A program made the position numbers and the translations under genes. DNA of 64,000 bases from Novosphingobium sp. (GTDB lineage Bacteria > Pseudomonadota > Alphaproteobacteria > Sphingomonadales > Sphingomonadaceae), in contig NZ_JAPZQX010000003.1 of assembly GCF_027531025.1 (NCBI RefSeq), positions 536,190 to 600,189 of the forward strand, given 5' to 3'. Under the pieces are notes generated by a model. The model saw nothing but the letters and a program-made list of their open reading frames with translations, did not search any database and was not told where the DNA came from. Shown here piece after piece: positions 25,137-33,490 of this stretch (position 1 is the stretch's first letter; the number at the start of each line of letters is the position of its first letter).

Positions 25137-26344
25137 GCCTGCAACTTGAACACTCGCCGACCACCGGCGACGATGTCATCACCAATTACACGATCAACTT
25201 CGGCCCCCAGCACCCGGCCGCGCACGGCGTGCTGCGCATGGTGCTGGAACTGGACGGCGAAGTGATCGAACGTGTCGATCCGCACGTCGGCCTGCTGCAT
25301 CGCGGCACCGAAAAGCTGATCGAGCACAAGACCTATCTCCAGGCGCTGCCTTACTTTGACCGGCTCGACTATTGCTCGCCGCTGGGCATGGAGCATTCCT
25401 ATGTGCTGGCGGTCGAGAAGCTGCTGAACGTCGAGGTGCCGGAGCGCGCGAAGTATCTGCGCGTGCTGTTCGCCGAACTGACCCGCATCTGCAACCACAT
25501 GCTGAACCTCGGTTCGCACGTGATGGACGTGGGCGCGATGACGCCGAACCTGTGGATGTTCGAAGTGCGCGAGGACTGCCTCAACTTCTTCGAGCGCGCT
25601 TCGGGTGCGCGGATGCACTCGGCCTGGTTCCGTCCCGGCGGTGTCCACCAGGACGTGCCGGAAAAGCTGCTGGTCGATATCGGCACCTGGCTCGACACGC
25701 GCCTGCCCGAACTGTTCGAAGATGCGATGAGCCTGGTGGTCGACAACCGCATCTTCAAGCAGCGCAATGTCGATATTGCCACGGTCAGCAAGGATGATGC
25801 GATCAAGTGGGGCTTCTCCGGCCCGATGATCCGCGGTTCCGGCATTCCATGGGACATCCGCAAGGCCCAGCCTTACGACGTCTACGACCGGATGGAATTC
25901 GACGTGCCGGTTGGCACGCGCGGCGATTGCTATGACCGGTTCATGGTTCGCGTCGAGGAAGTGCGCCAGTCGGCCCGGATCATGAAGCAGTGCCTGCGCG
26001 ATATGCCTTCCGGCCCAATCGCCTCGGATGACCGCAAGGTTTCGCCGCCCAAGCGCGCCGAGATGAAGCAGTCGATGGAAGCGCTGATCCATCACTTCAA
26101 GCTTTACACCGAAGGCTTCCACGTGCCGGCCGGTGAGGTCTATGTCGCCACCGAAAGCCCCAAGGGTGAATTCGGTGTCTATCTGGTCAGCGATGGCAGC
26201 AACAAGCCCTACCGCTGCAAGATCCGCCCGACCGCCTTCTCGCACCTCCAGGCGATGGACTTCATGTGCAAGGGCCACATGCTGCCGGACGTCACCGCCA
26301 TCATCGGCGCGATCGACGTGGTGTTCGGGGAGTGTGACCGTTGA
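25133..26344 (+). CDS. nuoD: NADH-quinone oxidoreductase subunit D
   Basis: [28 protein letters not shown] and DVVFGECDR. Confidence 0.97.
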
Positions 26345-26526
26345 TCCTTCGCGAGCTGTTCATCGCGGTCCTGGCGTTCTCCGCCTTCGCTTCGGCGGTG
26401 GCGGCCTATCTGTTCGTGTTCCACCCGGCTACCGCCACGCTGAAGGAAGTGCTGAGCACGGCCTTTACCGGCATGGTCGGTGTCTTTGTCGGGCGCTGGC
26501 TGGAACGGAGGATGGCCCGTGGCTGA
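26341..26526 (+). CDS. Small two-TM hypothetical protein inside the nuo operon
   Basis: 61 codons with two hydrophobic helices. TTG start overlaps the nuoD stop; its 3' end carries GGAGGA for the next gene. Confidence 0.7.
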
Positions 26527-26854
26527 TCGCCTGACCATCGCTCAGCAGATGATCGCGCATTACAACGCGCAGGATGCCGATGCCTATGTCGCGCTGATGA
26601 CCGACGATGCCTGCGAAGCGGGCTATCGCGGGGCGGTCCTGCGCGAAGGCAAGGAAGGCGTGCGCGCCGGGCTGAAGGCGATGTTCGCCGAATTCCCCGA
26701 GAACCGCGCCGAAATCATCCAGGGCTGGCAGCTGGGCGATACCGCTGTGCTCTATGAAAAGGTCTGGCGTTCGGCTGCGGCCGAACCCTTTGAAGTCATG
26801 TCCATTTACTCGTTCGAGGGCGACAAGTGCTCTCGCATGGAGTTTGTCCGCTAA
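26519..26854 (+). CDS. SnoaL-like/NTF2 fold protein inside the nuo operon
   Basis: HYNAQDADAYVALMTDDA...GKEGVRA...GDTAV pattern. GTG 26519 follows GGAGGA; TAATG overlap with nuoE. Confidence 0.8.
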   Translation: MADRLTIAQQMIAHYNAQDADAYVALMTDDACEAGYRGAVLREGKEGVRAGLKAMFAEFPENRAEIIQGWQLGDTAVLYEKVWRSAAAEPFEVMSIYSFEGDKCSRMEFVR

Positions 26855-27525: not shown

Positions 27526-28812
27526 ATGTCTTTGCAGGACAAGGACCGCATCTTCACCAATCTCTACGGCTATCAGCCGTGGAACCTCGATGCCGCCAAG
27601 AAGCGCGGTGACTGGGACAAGACCAGGAAGCTGCTTGAGCTTGGCCCCGACAAGATCATCGAGGAAATCAAGGCTTCAGGCCTGCGCGGGCGCGGGGGAG
27701 CGGGCTTCCCGACCGGCCTCAAGTGGTCGTTCATGCCCAAGGAATCGAAGGACGGCCGTCCCAGCTTCCTGGTGATCAACGCCGACGAATCCGAACCCGG
27801 TTCGTGCAAGGACCGCGAGATCATCCGTCACGATCCGCACAAGCTGATCGAGGGCGCGCTGGTGGCCGGCTTCGCGATGCGCGCGCGGGCGGCCTATATC
27901 TACATCCGCGGCGAATATATCCGCGAGGCCCAGGTGCTCGAGGCGGCGGTCAAGGAAGCCTATGACGCCGGGCTGATCGGCAAGAACGCCTGCAAGAGCG
28001 GCTACGATTTCGACGTCTACGTCCATCGCGGCGCCGGCGCCTATATCTGCGGTGAAGAAACCGCGATGATCGAAAGCCTGGAAGGCAAGAAGGGCCAGCC
28101 GCGCCTGAAGCCGCCGTTCCCGGCCGGCGCGGGCCTTTATGGCTGCCCGACCACGGTCAACAATGTCGAATCAATCGCGGTTGCCCCCACGATCCTGCGG
28201 CGCGGGGCGGGCTGGTTCAGCTCGTTCGGGCGGGACAACAACAAGGGCACCAAGCTGTTCCAGATCAGCGGGCACGTGAACAAGCCCTGCGTGGTCGAGG
28301 AAGCGATGAGCATCCCGTTCAGCGAGCTGATCGAGAAGCATTGCGGCGGCATCACCGGGGGCAAGGACAACCTGCTGGCGGTGATCCCGGGCGGCTCCTC
28401 GGTGCCGCTGGTTCCAGCCGAACAGATCTGGGACGCGCCTATGGACTTCGACGGTCTGCGCGAAGTCGGTTCGGGCCTTGGCACCGCCGCCGTCATCGTC
28501 ATGGACAAGTCGACCGACATAGTCCGCGCGATCAGCCGCCTGTCCTACTTCTACAAGCACGAGTCCTGCGGCCAGTGCACCCCTTGCCGCGAAGGCACGG
28601 GCTGGATGTGGCGCGTCATGGAACGCCTGCGCACCGGCGATGCCGACGTGGGCGAAATCGACATGCTGTGGGACGTGACCAAGCAGGTCGAAGGCCACAC
28701 CATCTGCGCACTGGGTGACGCCGCCGCCTGGCCGATCCAGGGCCTGATCCGCCACTTCCGCCCCGAACTGGAGCGCCGCATCGCCGAAAACGTGCGGGAG
28801 GCGGCCGAGTGA
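27526..28812 (+). CDS. nuoF: NADH-quinone oxidoreductase subunit F
   Basis: [30 protein letters not shown] and [12 protein letters not shown]. Confidence 0.97.
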
Positions 28813-29534
28813 AAGCCCTGACCCGCCTGGCTCCGCTGGCGGTGCTGGTGGCTGCTCCGGCTGTGGCCGAGGCGCCCAGTCCACAGCAGATCCGCACGTT
28901 CCTGGCCGAATATGGCACCTGCATCGCCAAGCGCGAGCCGGAACTGGCCCATCGCGCGGTGCTGGGCGAGGCGAGCTTCCATTACGACAGCCCCGAGGGC
29001 AAGCGCCTGCGCCAGCGCGAATGCATGGACGCGGCGCTGCTGCGCAATTCGAGCGATGGCTTTACCGGCCGCCTGCGGATGCGGCTTGACGACGATACCT
29101 ATCGCGGGGTGATCGCCGAGGCGTTGATCGCCAAGGGCGGCGTTGCCCTCGATCCGGCCAGGCTGCCCGCGATTGCGGCTCTCGATTACAATGAACCGCG
29201 CCCGCTGCGCACCACCGACCGGGACGGCAAGCCCATTCCGGAAGACCGGCTTGAGCGGCAGCGTGCTGCCATCGCCCGCCGGACCGAGGCGATTGCGCTC
29301 GGCCGTCTGGGTGAATGCACGGTGCGCACGGCCCCGGTCCCGGCCCGCACCGTCCTGGCTACACAGATCGACACCCCGGCCGAACTTCAAGCCTTGAATG
29401 CGCTTGGTCAGACCCTCGGCCAGTGCATCAAGGCGGGCGAGACCGTCTCGCTTGACCGGATCAGCGTGCGCGGCGCGCTGGCCACCGCCTATTACCGCCT
29501 TTCCCAGGCCAAGCCTTCCGGAGCGATCCAGTAA
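28809..29534 (+). CDS. Secreted hypothetical protein with an internal two-fold repeat, inside the nuo operon
   Basis: Signal peptide ending APAVA; two Cx33-35C...RGxxA units. GTGA overlap with nuoF and TAATG overlap with nuoG. Confidence 0.8.
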
Positions 29535-31543
29535 TGCCCAAGGTAACCGTCGACGGCGTGGAACTTGAGGTCCCGGCAGGGGCCACGGTCCTGCAGGCCT
29601 GCGAAATGGCCGGCAAGGAAATCCCGCGTTTCTGCTATCATGAGCGCCTGTCCATCGCCGGCAATTGCCGGATGTGCCTGGTCGAGGTGAAGCCCGGGCC
29701 GCCCAAGCCGCAGGCTTCGTGCGCGCTGCCTGCCGCCGAGGGCCAGGAAATCCGCACTGACAGCCCGATGGTCAAGAAGGCGCGCGAAGGGGTGATGGAG
29801 TTCCTCCTGATCAACCACCCGCTCGATTGCCCGATCTGCGACCAGGGCGGGGAATGCGACCTCCAGGACCAGTCGGTTGCCTATGGCCGCGGCGCCTCGC
29901 GCTATGACGAGAACAAGCGCGCCGTCACCGAAAAGTACATGGGTCCGCTGATCAAGACGGTGATGACCCGCTGCATCCACTGCACCCGCTGCGTGCGCTT
30001 CTCGGAAGAGATCGCCGGGGTGGACGAAATCGGCGCGCTTTATCGCGGCGAGCAGATGCAGATCACGACCTATCTGGAACAGGCCGCCAAGCACGAGCTT
30101 TCGGCCAATGTGATCGACCTTTGCCCGGTCGGCGCGCTCACCTCGCGGCCCTATGCCTTCGAGGCGCGGCCGTGGGAACTGAAGAAGACCCTGTCGATCG
30201 ACGTGTCGGACGCGGTCGGCTCGAACATCCGGCTCGACAGCCGTGGCCGCGAAGTGCTGCGCATCCTGCCGCGCATCAACGATGACGTGAACGAGGAATG
30301 GCTGTCCGACAAGGCGCGCTATCAGGTCGATGGCCTGACCCGCCGCCGCCTCGACCGGCCGTGGATCCGTGGGGCGGATGGCAAGCTTGCCGCCGCCACC
30401 TGGGAAGAAGCCTTCGCCGCCGTGGCCAAGGTCAACCCGGGCAAGTCGGTGGCCGTGGTTGCCGGTGACATGGTCGATTGCGAAACCATGTTCGCGGCCA
30501 AGGCGCTCGCAGGCGCGCTGGGCAGCAAGCTGCTTGAAGGCCGCCAGACCGGCCTCGACTATGACTGCTCGAACCTCGCGGCGGTGAACTTCAATTCGAC
30601 CATCGCCGGGATCGAAGAGGCCGATGCCGTGCTGATCGTGGGCAGCCATGTCCGCTGGGAAGCGCCGCTGGTGAACACCCGCATCCGCAAGGCGGTGAAG
30701 CGCGGTGCCAAGGTCTTTGTGGTCGGGGCGGAATGGGATGCGACCTATCCGGTCACCAACCTCGGCACTGACCTGGCCGTGCTGGACAAGCTGCCCAAGG
30801 ACGTTGCCGACGTGCTCAAGAAGGCGGCGCGTCCGGCGCTGATCCTGGGCGGCGCAGGCCTGGGCAAGGGCGCGCTGGGTGCCTGCCTGGCGCTAGCCGA
30901 TAAGTACAAGCTGGTCCGTGATGGCTGGAACGGCTTCAACGTGCTGCACATGGCGGCGGCGCGGATGGGCGGCTTGATGCTGGGCTATGCCCAGAAGGGC
31001 GGCATTGCCGACCTGGTCAAGGCCAAGCCCAAGCTGCTGCTTTCGCTCGGCGCGGACGAAGTGGACTACACCAAGTTTGCTGACAGCATCGTCGTTTACA
31101 TTGGCCACCATGGCGACAAGGGCGCTCACGCGGCCGACATCATCCTGCCGGCCGCTGCCTTCAGCGAAAAGCCGGGCACTTACGTCAACACCGAAGGCCG
31201 GGTGCAGTTTGCCGAAAAGGCTGTCTTCGCGCCGGGTGACGCGCGCGAGGACTGGACGATCCTGCGCGCGCTGGCCGATGCCCTGAGCGTCACTGTCGGC
31301 TTCGACAGCTTCGACGAGCTGCGCGCCGCGATGATCAAGGCCGCTCCGGCGCTCGGCAGCGAGGGACTGGCCGATTACGGTGCGCTGCCCAAGGCCGAGA
31401 AGGCCAAGGCCAGCGGCACGATCGAGGCTTACCCGATCAAGGACTTCTACCTCACCAACGCGATCGCCCGCGCCAGCGAGACCATGCAGCGCTGCTCGGC
31501 CGAACTACTCCACGGTGAGAGCTTCGCGGAGGCCGCGGAATGA
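29534..31543 (+). CDS. nuoG: NADH-quinone oxidoreductase subunit G
   Basis: [31 protein letters not shown] and CIHCTRC. Confidence 0.97.
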
Positions 31544-32583
31544 CCGCTTTCTTCCAATCGCTCGGCATGACCTACGAATGGGCGTGGTTCACCGCGACCA
31601 TTGCCGGGATCCTGCTGATTGCCCTGCCGCTGATGCTGGCCGTGGCGATGATCATCTATGTCGATCGCAAGGTCTGGGCGGCCATGGCGCTGCGCCGCGG
31701 CCCGAACGTGGTCGGCCCCTGGGGCCTGCTCCAGTCCTTTGCGGACGGCCTCAAGGTCTTCTTGCAGGAAACCATCGTGCCTTCGGCGGCCAACAAGGGC
31801 CTGTTCCTGATCGCGCCGATCATCACCTTCACCGTCGCGCTGCTGGCCTGGGCGGTGATCCCGTTCAATTCGGGCGCAGTGCTGGCCGATCTCAACGTTG
31901 GTCTGCTCTATGTCCTCGCGATCTCCTCGCTGGGGGTCTACGGCGTGGTCATCGCGGGCTGGGCCTCGAACTCGAAGTACCCGTTCTTCTCGGCCATGCG
32001 CGCCTCGGCGCAGATGATTTCCTATGAAGTCTCGATCGGCTTCATCCTGATCTGCGTGGTGCTGTGGGCGGGCAGCTTCAACCTTGGCGAGATTGTCGAG
32101 GCGCAGAAGTCGCACGTCGGCATCATCAACGGCTTCGTCGCCAACCCGCTGCTATTCCCGATGTGGGTGATGTTCCTGATCTCCGGCATGGCCGAAACCG
32201 CCCGCGCGCCGTTCGACCTCACCGAGGCCGAAAGCGAGCTGGTCGCCGGTTATCAGACCGAATATTCGTCGATGAGCTTCGCGCTCTACTGGCTGGGTGA
32301 GTACGCCAACGTCCTCTTGATGTGCGCGCTCAATGCCGTGCTGTTCTTCGGCGGTTACCTGCCGCCGCTCGACATTCCGGTGCTCTACCTGGTGCCGGGC
32401 TGGATCTGGCTCTTCGCCAAAATCTTCTTCTTCTTCTTCATCTTCTCGTGGGTCAAGGCCACGGTCCCGCGCTATCGCTATGACCAGCTGATGCGTCTGG
32501 GATGGAAGGTGTTCCTGCCGGTTTCGCTGGGCTTCGTGGTCCTGGTGAGCGGCTATCTGATGCTGACGAGGTACGGGGTATGA
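31540..32583 (+). CDS. nuoH: NADH-quinone oxidoreductase subunit H
   Basis: [31 protein letters not shown] and PRYRYDQLM. Confidence 0.97.
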
Positions 32584-33008
32584 TACGTTTACTTACCCTT
32601 GCTGCATTCCTCGCCACATCAACAGCCGTTGCTGCCGAGCCAACTAATCGTTGGTGGTCGGGCGGCGGTATGGGCGTGAGCGAGTATGGTTGGTCCGGAT
32701 CGGATCGAACTACGATCTATATGACTTGCGAAGGTGATGATGAACTGGGGCTTCGGGTTTCAATCCGGGGTGTCGATCCAAAGCCGAAGTCTCAGGTCAT
32801 TTTCGAAGTAAACGGTCAAAGTATTGTCTTTTTCGTAAAGTCCGATGGCGACATTGAGATGCAAAGCAGAGTTTCGATGAACAATCTCTACTTTCTTTTC
32901 GAAGAGCTCCGCAGCGGTCGTCAGGTCACTGTGAATTTTGATGGCCTCTCAAAGACACTTCCACTTACTGGAAGTGCCAAGGGGCTAGGCAAGGGACTTT
33001 GTAAATGA
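32580..33008 (+). CDS. Low-GC secreted hypothetical protein inside the nuo operon
   Basis: 142 aa from ATG 32580, signal peptide ending AVAA, two Cys. Hand count 210/420 GC over 32581-33000. ATGA overlaps at both ends. Confidence 0.8.
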
Positions 33009-33490
33009 GTGTCGCTCAGCTTATCAAGAGCTTCACCCTCTGGGAATTCGTGAAGGCGCACTGGCTTACCCTGAAGTACTTCTTCAGGCCCAAGGCGACC
33101 ATCAACTATCCCTTCGAGAAGAACCCGCTGAGCCCGCGGTTCCGCGGCGAACATGCGCTGCGCCGCTATCCCAACGGGGAAGAACGCTGCATCGCCTGCA
33201 AGCTGTGCGAAGCGGTCTGCCCGGCGCAGGCGATCACGATCGAGGCCGAGCCGCGTGACGATGGGAGCCGCCGCACCACGCGCTACGACATCGACATGAC
33301 CAAGTGCATCTACTGCGGCTTCTGTCAGGAAGCCTGCCCGGTCGATGCGATCGTCGAAGGGCCGAACTTCGAATACGCGACCGAAACGCGCGAGGAACTG
33401 CTTTACGACAAGGCAAAGCTGCTGGCCAACGGGGACAAGTGGGAGCGGGCGATTGCCGCGAACCTTGAAGCCGATGCGCCGTATCGGTAG
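33005..33490 (+). CDS. nuoI: NADH-quinone oxidoreductase subunit I
   Basis: [12 protein letters not shown] and [12 protein letters not shown] ferredoxin motifs. Confidence 0.97.

Follow-up and report, generated by a model that had tools for sequence, protein, structure and literature searches.

A YfjT-family gene of foreign composition occupies a variable slot between nuoH and nuoI in Novosphingobium

Introduction

How does a gene of foreign composition come to lie exactly between nuoH and nuoI, two genes of respiratory complex I, and what might its product do there? The question is raised by a locus of Novosphingobium sp. (assembly GCF_027531025.1, contig NZ_JAPZQX010000003.1), which we analyzed within a stretch of 64,000 nucleotides (nt) spanning positions 536,190 to 600,189 of the forward strand, hereafter the window. 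The gene, designated here orfX, encodes a putative exported protein of 142 amino acids (aa), and an earlier note on the same DNA, made from its letters alone, had proposed it as a recent acquisition at the nuoH/nuoI overlap. The results presented below show that orfX is a genuine gene under constraint, foreign in composition and a new member of an uncharacterized Pfam family, and that the junction in which it sits is a family-wide variable slot, with orfX as one of its many occupants. On balance, we favor the view that orfX is a functional, horizontally acquired cassette, precise to the coding sequence (CDS), lodged in a freshwater Novosphingobium where the nuoH stop and the nuoI start overlap.

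Unidentified reading frames (URFs) interspersed in the nuo or nqo clusters of alphaproteobacteria and co-transcribed with the complex I genes were described in the 1990s for Paracoccus denitrificans and Rhodobacter capsulatus, as fixed features of single model operons. Both horizontal insertion into operons and the presence of extra open reading frames (ORFs) in alphaproteobacterial nuo clusters were known already. In the literature searched, no description was found of a hypervariable two-cysteine slot at this junction or of NuoH fusions.

Results and Discussion

orfX is a constrained gene of foreign composition

The orfX CDS has a GC content of 0.494, and of 0.476 at third codon positions (GC3), compared to GC3 values of 0.849 for nuoG, 0.882 for nuoH, 0.827 for nuoI, 0.850 for nuoJ, 0.843 for nuoK and 0.886 for nuoL. 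These values bear out the AT-rich codon usage that the earlier note had reported relative to the flanking nuo genes, and its hand count of 50% GC over positions 32581-33000 agrees with a computed 0.500. A GC and GC3 scan identified the orfX region as the GC-poorest 429-nt stretch of the window (0.485 versus a mean of 0.645, standard deviation 0.028); across the 2.94-Mb genome (GC 0.658), 0.3% of 429-nt windows are equally poor, and of the 25 patches with a GC of 50% or less that it contains, this region is one.

The two ATGA overlaps that had been described, one joining the nuoH stop to the orfX start and the other joining the orfX stop to the nuoI start, are both present. Apart from a 4-nt repeat of ATGA, the sole duplication, the inserted DNA is precisely one CDS. 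No inverted or att/attC-like repeats were found to bracket the insert, and the segment from 32300 to 33300 holds just short repeats at chance level. A transposon, an insertion sequence or an integron-type cassette was considered and rejected, because terminal inverted repeats, an att-like site and a recombinase gene are all missing and the insert is a single CDS.

Translation of orfX likewise agrees with the earlier description of a signal-peptide protein with two cysteines (C50 and C141), the hydrophobic leader ending at a predicted AVA/AEP cleavage site. Among 5.8 billion clustered proteins, 37 homologues of OrfX were found at 56-70% identity, and their alignment (A1) shows a variable leader followed by a conserved AEP[21 protein letters not shown] hairpin, with 24 invariant columns that include both cysteines. 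In every full-length homologue the conserved AEP is preceded by a comparable leader. The ratio of nonsynonymous to synonymous substitution (dN/dS) lies between 0.06 and 0.13 wherever dS is unsaturated, which indicates that the OrfX family is under strong purifying selection. An identical OrfX protein is encoded on five contigs from several sources, and a sequencing-run search placed the organism in lake water, recovering this stretch of DNA from lake and freshwater metagenomes of several studies and, in part, from freshwater metatranscriptomes.

The junction is empty in the closest relative

When 150 genomes of the genus were surveyed at the DNA level and then compared locus by locus, the closest sampled species proved to be a genome (G007) with 96% nt identity in nuoH and nuoI and a nuoI dS of 0.19. 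Its junction is empty, a single ATGA forming the overlap of nuoH with nuoI, and the final 45 nt of its nuoH are identical to those of the Novosphingobium studied here. Deletion from one ATGA to the other, which had been predicted to restore a normal overlap, reproduces precisely this G007 junction. Within the tight clade around this genome the junction exists in four states: orfX here, the empty site of G007, a 50-aa NuoH extension in G119, and an unrelated 171-aa ORFan in G095 (locus L058), for which a homologue search returned only its own cluster and the Atlas model was poor. The comparison with close relatives therefore yielded both an empty site and different occupants, and no series of orthologues with host-like GC3 was encountered at this junction.

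On the other hand, the last nuoH codons (AGG, GTA) and the first nuoI codons, read in the earlier note as atypical and as possible marks of the transfer, turned out to be ancestral, the former being identical in G007 and the latter (AGT GTC GCT CAG CTx) recurring in the empty-site genome G111. Of the recent acquisition that had been proposed, the foreign origin stands, as does a change, within a short time, in what the junction holds, G007 being empty and the next two relatives differing; whether that change was a gain is weighed below.

Mismatches to G007 amount to 2 per 100 nt upstream of the insert and 7 downstream, against a background of about 4. The downstream cluster falls in the NuoI N-terminus, which is variable among all relatives, and the mismatch density next to the insert is not clearly raised. 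At no other orfX-bearing locus does nuoH end in the same 30 nt. As the 3' end of nuoH (30-45 nt) is thus of the local G007 type and unlike that of orfX-bearing loci, a long donor tract is excluded on the nuoH side. Entry would then have occurred by recombination within short conserved blocks flanking the junction, possibly with a crossover inside the block just upstream of it, or by ATGA microhomology.

The GAGG element ahead of orfX directly precedes nuoI in empty-site relatives, and it is likely the Shine-Dalgarno (SD) element for whichever gene follows nuoH. Judging from these motifs, orfX would be translated by coupling through the GAGG-N8-ATGA element that normally serves nuoI, and would supply an AAGGGA-N8-ATGA of its own for nuoI. 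With one coupling signal reused and the other supplied, the insertion would be neutral for complex I expression and the cassette would be constitutively expressed. Such a base-exact insertion shows how a foreign gene may enter an essential, stoichiometry-sensitive operon without cost.

The nuoH/nuoI junction is a variable slot in sphingomonads

Among named species-representative genomes, the junction was then surveyed in the 80 whose NuoH matched best (loci L058-L137). It is empty in 54 of them, holds an ORF of 391-790 nt in 19, and holds an in-frame C-terminal extension of NuoH in the remaining 7. Cultured strains with an occupied slot include N. taihuense and N. jiangmenense. The genera with occupants are Novosphingobium, Sphingobium, Sphingopyxis, Sphingorhabdus, Altererythrobacter, Porphyrobacter and Pontixanthobacter, and none of the 26 occupants is an orfX homologue. 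The GC3 of every occupant is below that of its flanks (0.34-0.75 versus 0.61-0.93), and most free ORFs have an ATGA or GTGA overlap at both ends, with the nuoH stop and with the nuoI start. At two control junctions of the same genomes, the largest inserts were 262 nt (nuoG/nuoH) and 187 nt (nuoI/nuoJ). Gaps longer than 90 nt, possibly holding small ORFs, are present at 27 of 79 nuoG/nuoH and at 14 of 75 nuoI/nuoJ junctions.

The distinct occupants of at least 100 aa (n = 32) fall into 27 BLAST clusters. Exactly two cysteines are found in 26 of the 32, and 25 share one layout, with a cysteine after the leader or fusion point and another near the C-terminus, 91-135 residues apart. Only 2% of the 110-210 aa ORFs of this genome have the same layout (binomial P ~7e-31, calculated on cluster representatives). 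OrfX fits it, its cysteines being 91 residues apart and the last one penultimate, and it shares with the resident occupants the leader and both ATGA overlaps. About a third of the sphingomonad species sampled are therefore occupied, mostly by low-GC3, two-cysteine genes with almost no sequence similarity among them. A 264-aa occupant of Novosphingobium jiangmenense (L073:2644-3438) has four cysteines, spaced like two tandem two-cysteine domains.

The commonest resident family (alignment A3; for example L137:2644-3117, L066:2641-3102 and L085:2641-3153) occupies the slot in several genera and has 38 representatives among 1.8 billion proteins. Its members are of about 150 aa, with a leader and two cysteines, and match no Pfam family. 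Its profile reaches four other occupant types (L085, L102, L115 and L067; E 1e-5 to 7e-3). The A3 hidden Markov model (HMM) matched orfX at E 1.5 in a database of 32 sequences, the A1 HMM reached no other occupant below E 0.048, and an hhalign comparison of A1 with A3 gave a probability of 1.6%. The AlphaFold2 (AF2) model of A3 (predicted local distance difference test score, pLDDT, 91.6) is an eight-stranded beta-barrel of eight long strands without a helix, which resembles avidins, PliC, the OmpA N-domain and similar small barrels and gave no match to IalB, the protein that the OrfX model resembles (see below). A single homologous family comprising all the occupants, orfX included, was rejected because these two confident models differ in fold; the slot would therefore host at least two unrelated folds, with orfX an outsider among the residents. 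Pfam searches of eight other slot or neighbor proteins returned nothing except helicase domains. A predicted 141-aa protein (P0074) combines a NuoI-like N-terminal segment of 45 residues with an end like that of the resident slot family, and may be a rearranged or mis-called junction.

orfX resembles the classical URFs as a non-nuo ORF between complex I genes, and differs from them in its foreign composition (GC3 0.48), its absence from the nearest species, its unrelated replacements in sister lineages and a slot that also yields NuoH fusions. The slot could represent either a source of unknown periplasmic accessories of bacterial complex I, or the use of an essential operon as a safe, highly expressed harbor for fast-evolving envelope proteins.

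OrfX belongs to the YfjT family and has a predicted IalB-like fold

Precomputed Pfam assignments place OrfX and all its homologues except the weakest in PF27224 (YfjT), 35 of 36 homologues in that listing carrying the family, as do genes called at the homologous loci. Scans of OrfX against NCBIfam and PHROGs gave nothing significant, and a Pfam scan at E up to 10 returned a sub-threshold VWD match alone, with no match to PF06776 (IalB). The AF2 model built from A1 (pLDDT 88.3; predicted template modeling score, pTM, 0.79) contains eight strands and a 16-residue helix, with low pLDDT at residues 1-20. In an exhaustive VIA structural comparison just two entries scored above Z 5, the next best reaching 4.2. 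The top one was 8z5n_A (Z 8.7, 117 residues aligned), from an entry for the Vibrio flagellar LPHT ring that holds FlgH, FlgI, FlgT, FlgP, MotX and MotY, any of which may be chain A. The other was IalB from Bartonella henselae (3dtd_A; Z 7.1, 116 residues aligned, root-mean-square deviation 3.9, 12% identity). In the ESM Atlas the model matched a cluster of YfjT domain-containing proteins (TM-score 0.66 by query, 120 residues aligned, PF27224 in 100% of its members) and an IalB cluster (TM-score 0.62), and a Foldseek search of the PDB gave no match at E <=0.001, IalB appearing only at E ~0.3 with a TM-score of 0.46.

The loose likeness to IalB suggested in the earlier note is thus upheld at the level of fold, by the VIA and Atlas matches, and not at the level of sequence, where the family is YfjT. 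OrfX is confidently predicted to adopt an IalB-like alpha+beta fold, the match covering nearly the whole mature protein, and IalB is, like OrfX, a small exported alphaproteobacterial protein. This resemblance assigns no function, because the molecular function of IalB is itself unknown. Mature OrfX would be a periplasmic protein, presumably stapled by a disulfide between the invariant C50 and C141.

The family takes its name from YfjT of Escherichia coli K-12 (b2637), which shares PF27224 and an N-terminal leader with OrfX and is slightly longer (155 versus 142 aa). Both proteins have a W-x-x-G-x-G-x-G-x-x-E-Y hairpin followed by an I-x-C strand. An hhalign comparison of YfjT with A1 (E 9.3e-5, probability 59%) covered 50 columns, restricted to the leader, the hairpin motif and the strand of the first cysteine, and is best described as remote similarity. 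The yfjT gene belongs to the cryptic prophage CP4-57, where it adjoins yfjS and is surrounded by abpAB and rnlAB, and the OrfX family is likewise found on mobile or defence-rich DNA; unlike orfX, yfjT is not inside a complex I operon. No report on the function of YfjT was found, the titles and abstracts retrieved containing passing mentions or unrelated matters.

A distant YfjT-like paralogue of 147 aa is present away from the nuo genes in another genome of the same genus (G016; L005:1480-1923). It has a leader, the same two-cysteine layout and 30% identity over the C-terminal half, and lies in a region of 61% GC adjoining a retropepsin-like gene, so the family also occurs as an ordinary chromosomal gene in the genus.

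Relatives of OrfX occur at the same junction and on mobile DNA

Homologues of OrfX were found in three kinds of context. Copies at the nuoH/nuoI junction, with the same overlaps, are present at L006, L046, L051, L052/L053 and L054/L055, in hosts whose NuoH is 74-89% identical to that of this genome. Other copies, on metagenomic contigs, lie directly downstream of a Type IIG (MmeI-type) restriction-modification gene (L008, L009, L047, L048, L056 and L057), and a third group (L007, L049 and L050) is found on collinear phage-like contigs of 47% GC with two HNH genes and PHROG matches. PADLOC matches among the neighbors of these homologues include a Type IIG restriction endonuclease-methyltransferase (9e-280) and a GmrSD-like HEC-05. 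The gene that follows the MmeI-linked copy is DEAD/ResIII helicase-like in L009, encodes a 395-aa protein followed by a helicase in L057, and is GmrSD-like in L056; in L008, L047 and L048 it was cut off or not scanned. A tblastn search of plasmids gave a single 29% match, on a conjugative plasmid of Advenella, and a search of species-representative genomes with profile A1, a set from which the window's own genome was perhaps absent, returned no relative.

The C-terminus G-x-G-L-C-(K/E), with its purine-rich coding, is conserved throughout the family, including the non-nuo copies with an ATGA overlap downstream. Several non-nuo copies end in AATGA, and those of L009 and L057 overlap the next gene by ATGA; the 3' coupling signal would therefore be native to the family.

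In a maximum-likelihood tree the nuo copies are spread over at least three places; its well-supported branches require at least four changes of context label. The nuo copy L046 is nested within the MmeI-linked clade (support 96/95), and L054, whose NuoH is 87% identical to that of this genome, carries the most distant OrfX (62%), which groups with that of L052. In L054, judged from these sequences, host and cassette are incongruent. The same family sits at the junction in at least five other sphingomonad lineages, at three or more separate places of the tree, and has entered it more than once. This repeated entry, together with the restriction-modification and phage-like company, opens a way to working out what the family, which counts an E. 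coli y-gene among its members, does in the cell.

The junction copy of L006 (lineage of GCA_965189635.1) is followed by a 51-aa ATGA-coupled ORF between the orfX homologue and nuoI (L006:4435-4590). Two more ORFs lie in that operon, one of 126 aa separating nuoF from nuoG and one of 45 aa behind nuoL.

NuoH extensions and alternative explanations

In-frame NuoH extensions of 33-143 aa were detected in the census at L061, L064, L069, L093, L095, L116 and L122, and in 5 of the first 36 loci collected (L012, L017, L031, L040 and L045). The longer ones (128-143 aa) have the two-cysteine layout of the free occupants and no leader, and those of L017 and L095 are 32% identical to each other. One extension, in a Novosphingobium lineage known from a metagenome-assembled genome, adds 133 aa. 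In the NuoH of this genome the last of the eight hydrophobic segments is preceded by a loop with five Lys/Arg (residues 303-323). In ND1, which has eight transmembrane (TM) helices, the link from TM7 to TM8 faces the matrix (PMC9696053). By the positive-inside rule, and in agreement with the topology of ND1, the C-terminus of NuoH and its extensions are periplasmic, and the extensions thus lie in the same compartment as that to which the leader-bearing ORFs of the slot are sent.

These extensions are the main ground for a different explanation, namely that orfX and the other occupants encode a lineage-specific periplasmic supernumerary subunit or assembly factor that docks on NuoH, with fusion as its extreme form. 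That fusions occur in exactly this slot, that domain-sized inserts are confined to the H/I junction, and that coupling to both nuoH and nuoI would match product amounts all speak for it, as do the shared cysteine layout and compartment. We nevertheless regard it as unlikely. Constrained homologues (60-67% identity) occur on phage-like contigs and in restriction-modification islands that have no nuo neighbors; the slot is empty in two thirds of the species, the nearest relative included; the occupants have at least two unrelated predicted folds (IalB-like and eight-stranded barrel); and no homology was detected between the fused and the free occupants. A predicted complex of NuoH with mature OrfX (residues 20-142) scored 0.00, which is no answer and counts as evidence neither way. 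The broader proposal that complex I of Sphingomonadaceae carries exchangeable, lineage-specific periplasmic accessory domains at the NuoH C-terminus, in the form of NuoH extensions or of leader-bearing, ATGA-coupled ORFs in the slot, orfX being a mobile-element protein recruited to that role, seems to us a little less probable again; if true, it would describe a bacterial, fast-diversifying counterpart of the disulfide-bonded accessory subunits of mitochondrial complex I in the intermembrane space.

Somewhat more doubtful still is the idea that orfX has long been resident in the slot, having descended vertically from an ancestor shared with the L051 lineage, and was lost or replaced in closer relatives. 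The nearest OrfX (L051, 74%) is indeed found in the nearest orfX-bearing host (NuoH 89-93%), the synonymous divergence between the two copies is similar for orfX and its flanks once normalized to their saturation plateaus, and fast turnover of the slot weakens arguments from parsimony. However, five sampled relatives nearer than L051 (nuoI four-fold divergence 0.10-0.29 versus 0.30) all lack orfX, so that several independent, precise deletions or replacements would be needed; the gene shows no amelioration (GC3 0.48 versus 0.83-0.89 in nuo genes), and the L054 incongruence is at odds with vertical descent. A non-functional or selfish passenger, tolerated only for keeping nuoI coupled and of benefit to neither the cell nor complex I, is very improbable: the low dN/dS, the 24 invariant columns, the confident compact fold, copies from three kinds of context and an identical protein on five contigs from several sources all argue for function, even though the nearest relative manages without orfX, the occupant of the sister lineage is an ORFan, and the lethality of imprecise deletions in an essential operon would favor persistence without function.

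We therefore return to a horizontally acquired, functional cassette as the preferred reading. The exported, putatively disulfide-stapled OrfX would most likely have an accessory role, of envelope or defence type, as cargo of mobile DNA rather than be a core part of complex I, given the company of its homologues in defence islands, on phage contigs and in a cryptic prophage; a role as a complex I accessory is possible. Several observations weigh against this reading. OrfX matched no PADLOC-DB 2.0 model at E up to 0.001, no homologue was found by tblastn in 50,697 deposited phage genomes, and the functional role proposed is drawn from gene neighborhood only. A link to complex I, suggested by the in-frame NuoH fusions of the slot, is treated as incidental in this reading. 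In addition, the tree, which is midpoint-rooted only, does not orient the transfer from mobile DNA to nuo or the reverse, the nearest orfX pair (this genome and L051) is near synonymous saturation in both cassette and flanks, and in so dynamic a slot a gain of orfX here is not rigorously separable from its precise loss in G007.

Features of the locus and other low-GC or non-nuo genes

The coordinates of orfX, its putative signals and the flanking genes are collected in Table 1.

Table 1. Features of the nuoH-orfX-nuoI locus, in window positions.
Feature	Positions	Strand	Description and basis
nuoH	31540..32583	+	347 aa, eight hydrophobic segments; ORF list, NADHdh Pfam matches on orthologues, hydropathy
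SD-like GAGG, inside last nuoH codons	32568..32571	+	8 nt ahead of ATG 32580; sequence; putative SD role
ATGA overlap, nuoH stop / orfX start	32580..32583	+	Sequence
orfX, 142 aa, YfjT family (PF27224), predicted exported	32580..33008	+	Translation, homologues, alignment A1, AF2, dN/dS
Predicted Sec signal peptide, residues 1-19	32580..32636	+	n-region MIR, hydrophobic core, AVA/A cleavage motif; from translation
Cys50 codon	32727..32729	+	Invariant column in alignment A1
SD-like AAGGGA, inside last orfX codons (Lys-Gly)	32991..32996	+	8 nt ahead of nuoI ATG; putative function
Cys141 codon, penultimate residue	33000..33002	+	Invariant in alignment A1; putative disulfide with Cys50
ATGA overlap, orfX stop / nuoI start	33005..33008	+	Sequence
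nuoI	33005..33490	+	161 aa, 2x[4Fe-4S] subunit; ORF list, Fer4 Pfam matches on orthologues

Elsewhere in the genome, patches at or below 50% GC cluster on contig C5 (~11.7-38.8 kb), at C2:181351-184780 and at C8:2401-5180, and are probably genomic islands. The nuo operon of the window contains further non-nuo ORFs between nuoD and nuoE (26341-26854) and between nuoF and nuoG (28809-29534), which show that this operon is generally permissive to extra genes.

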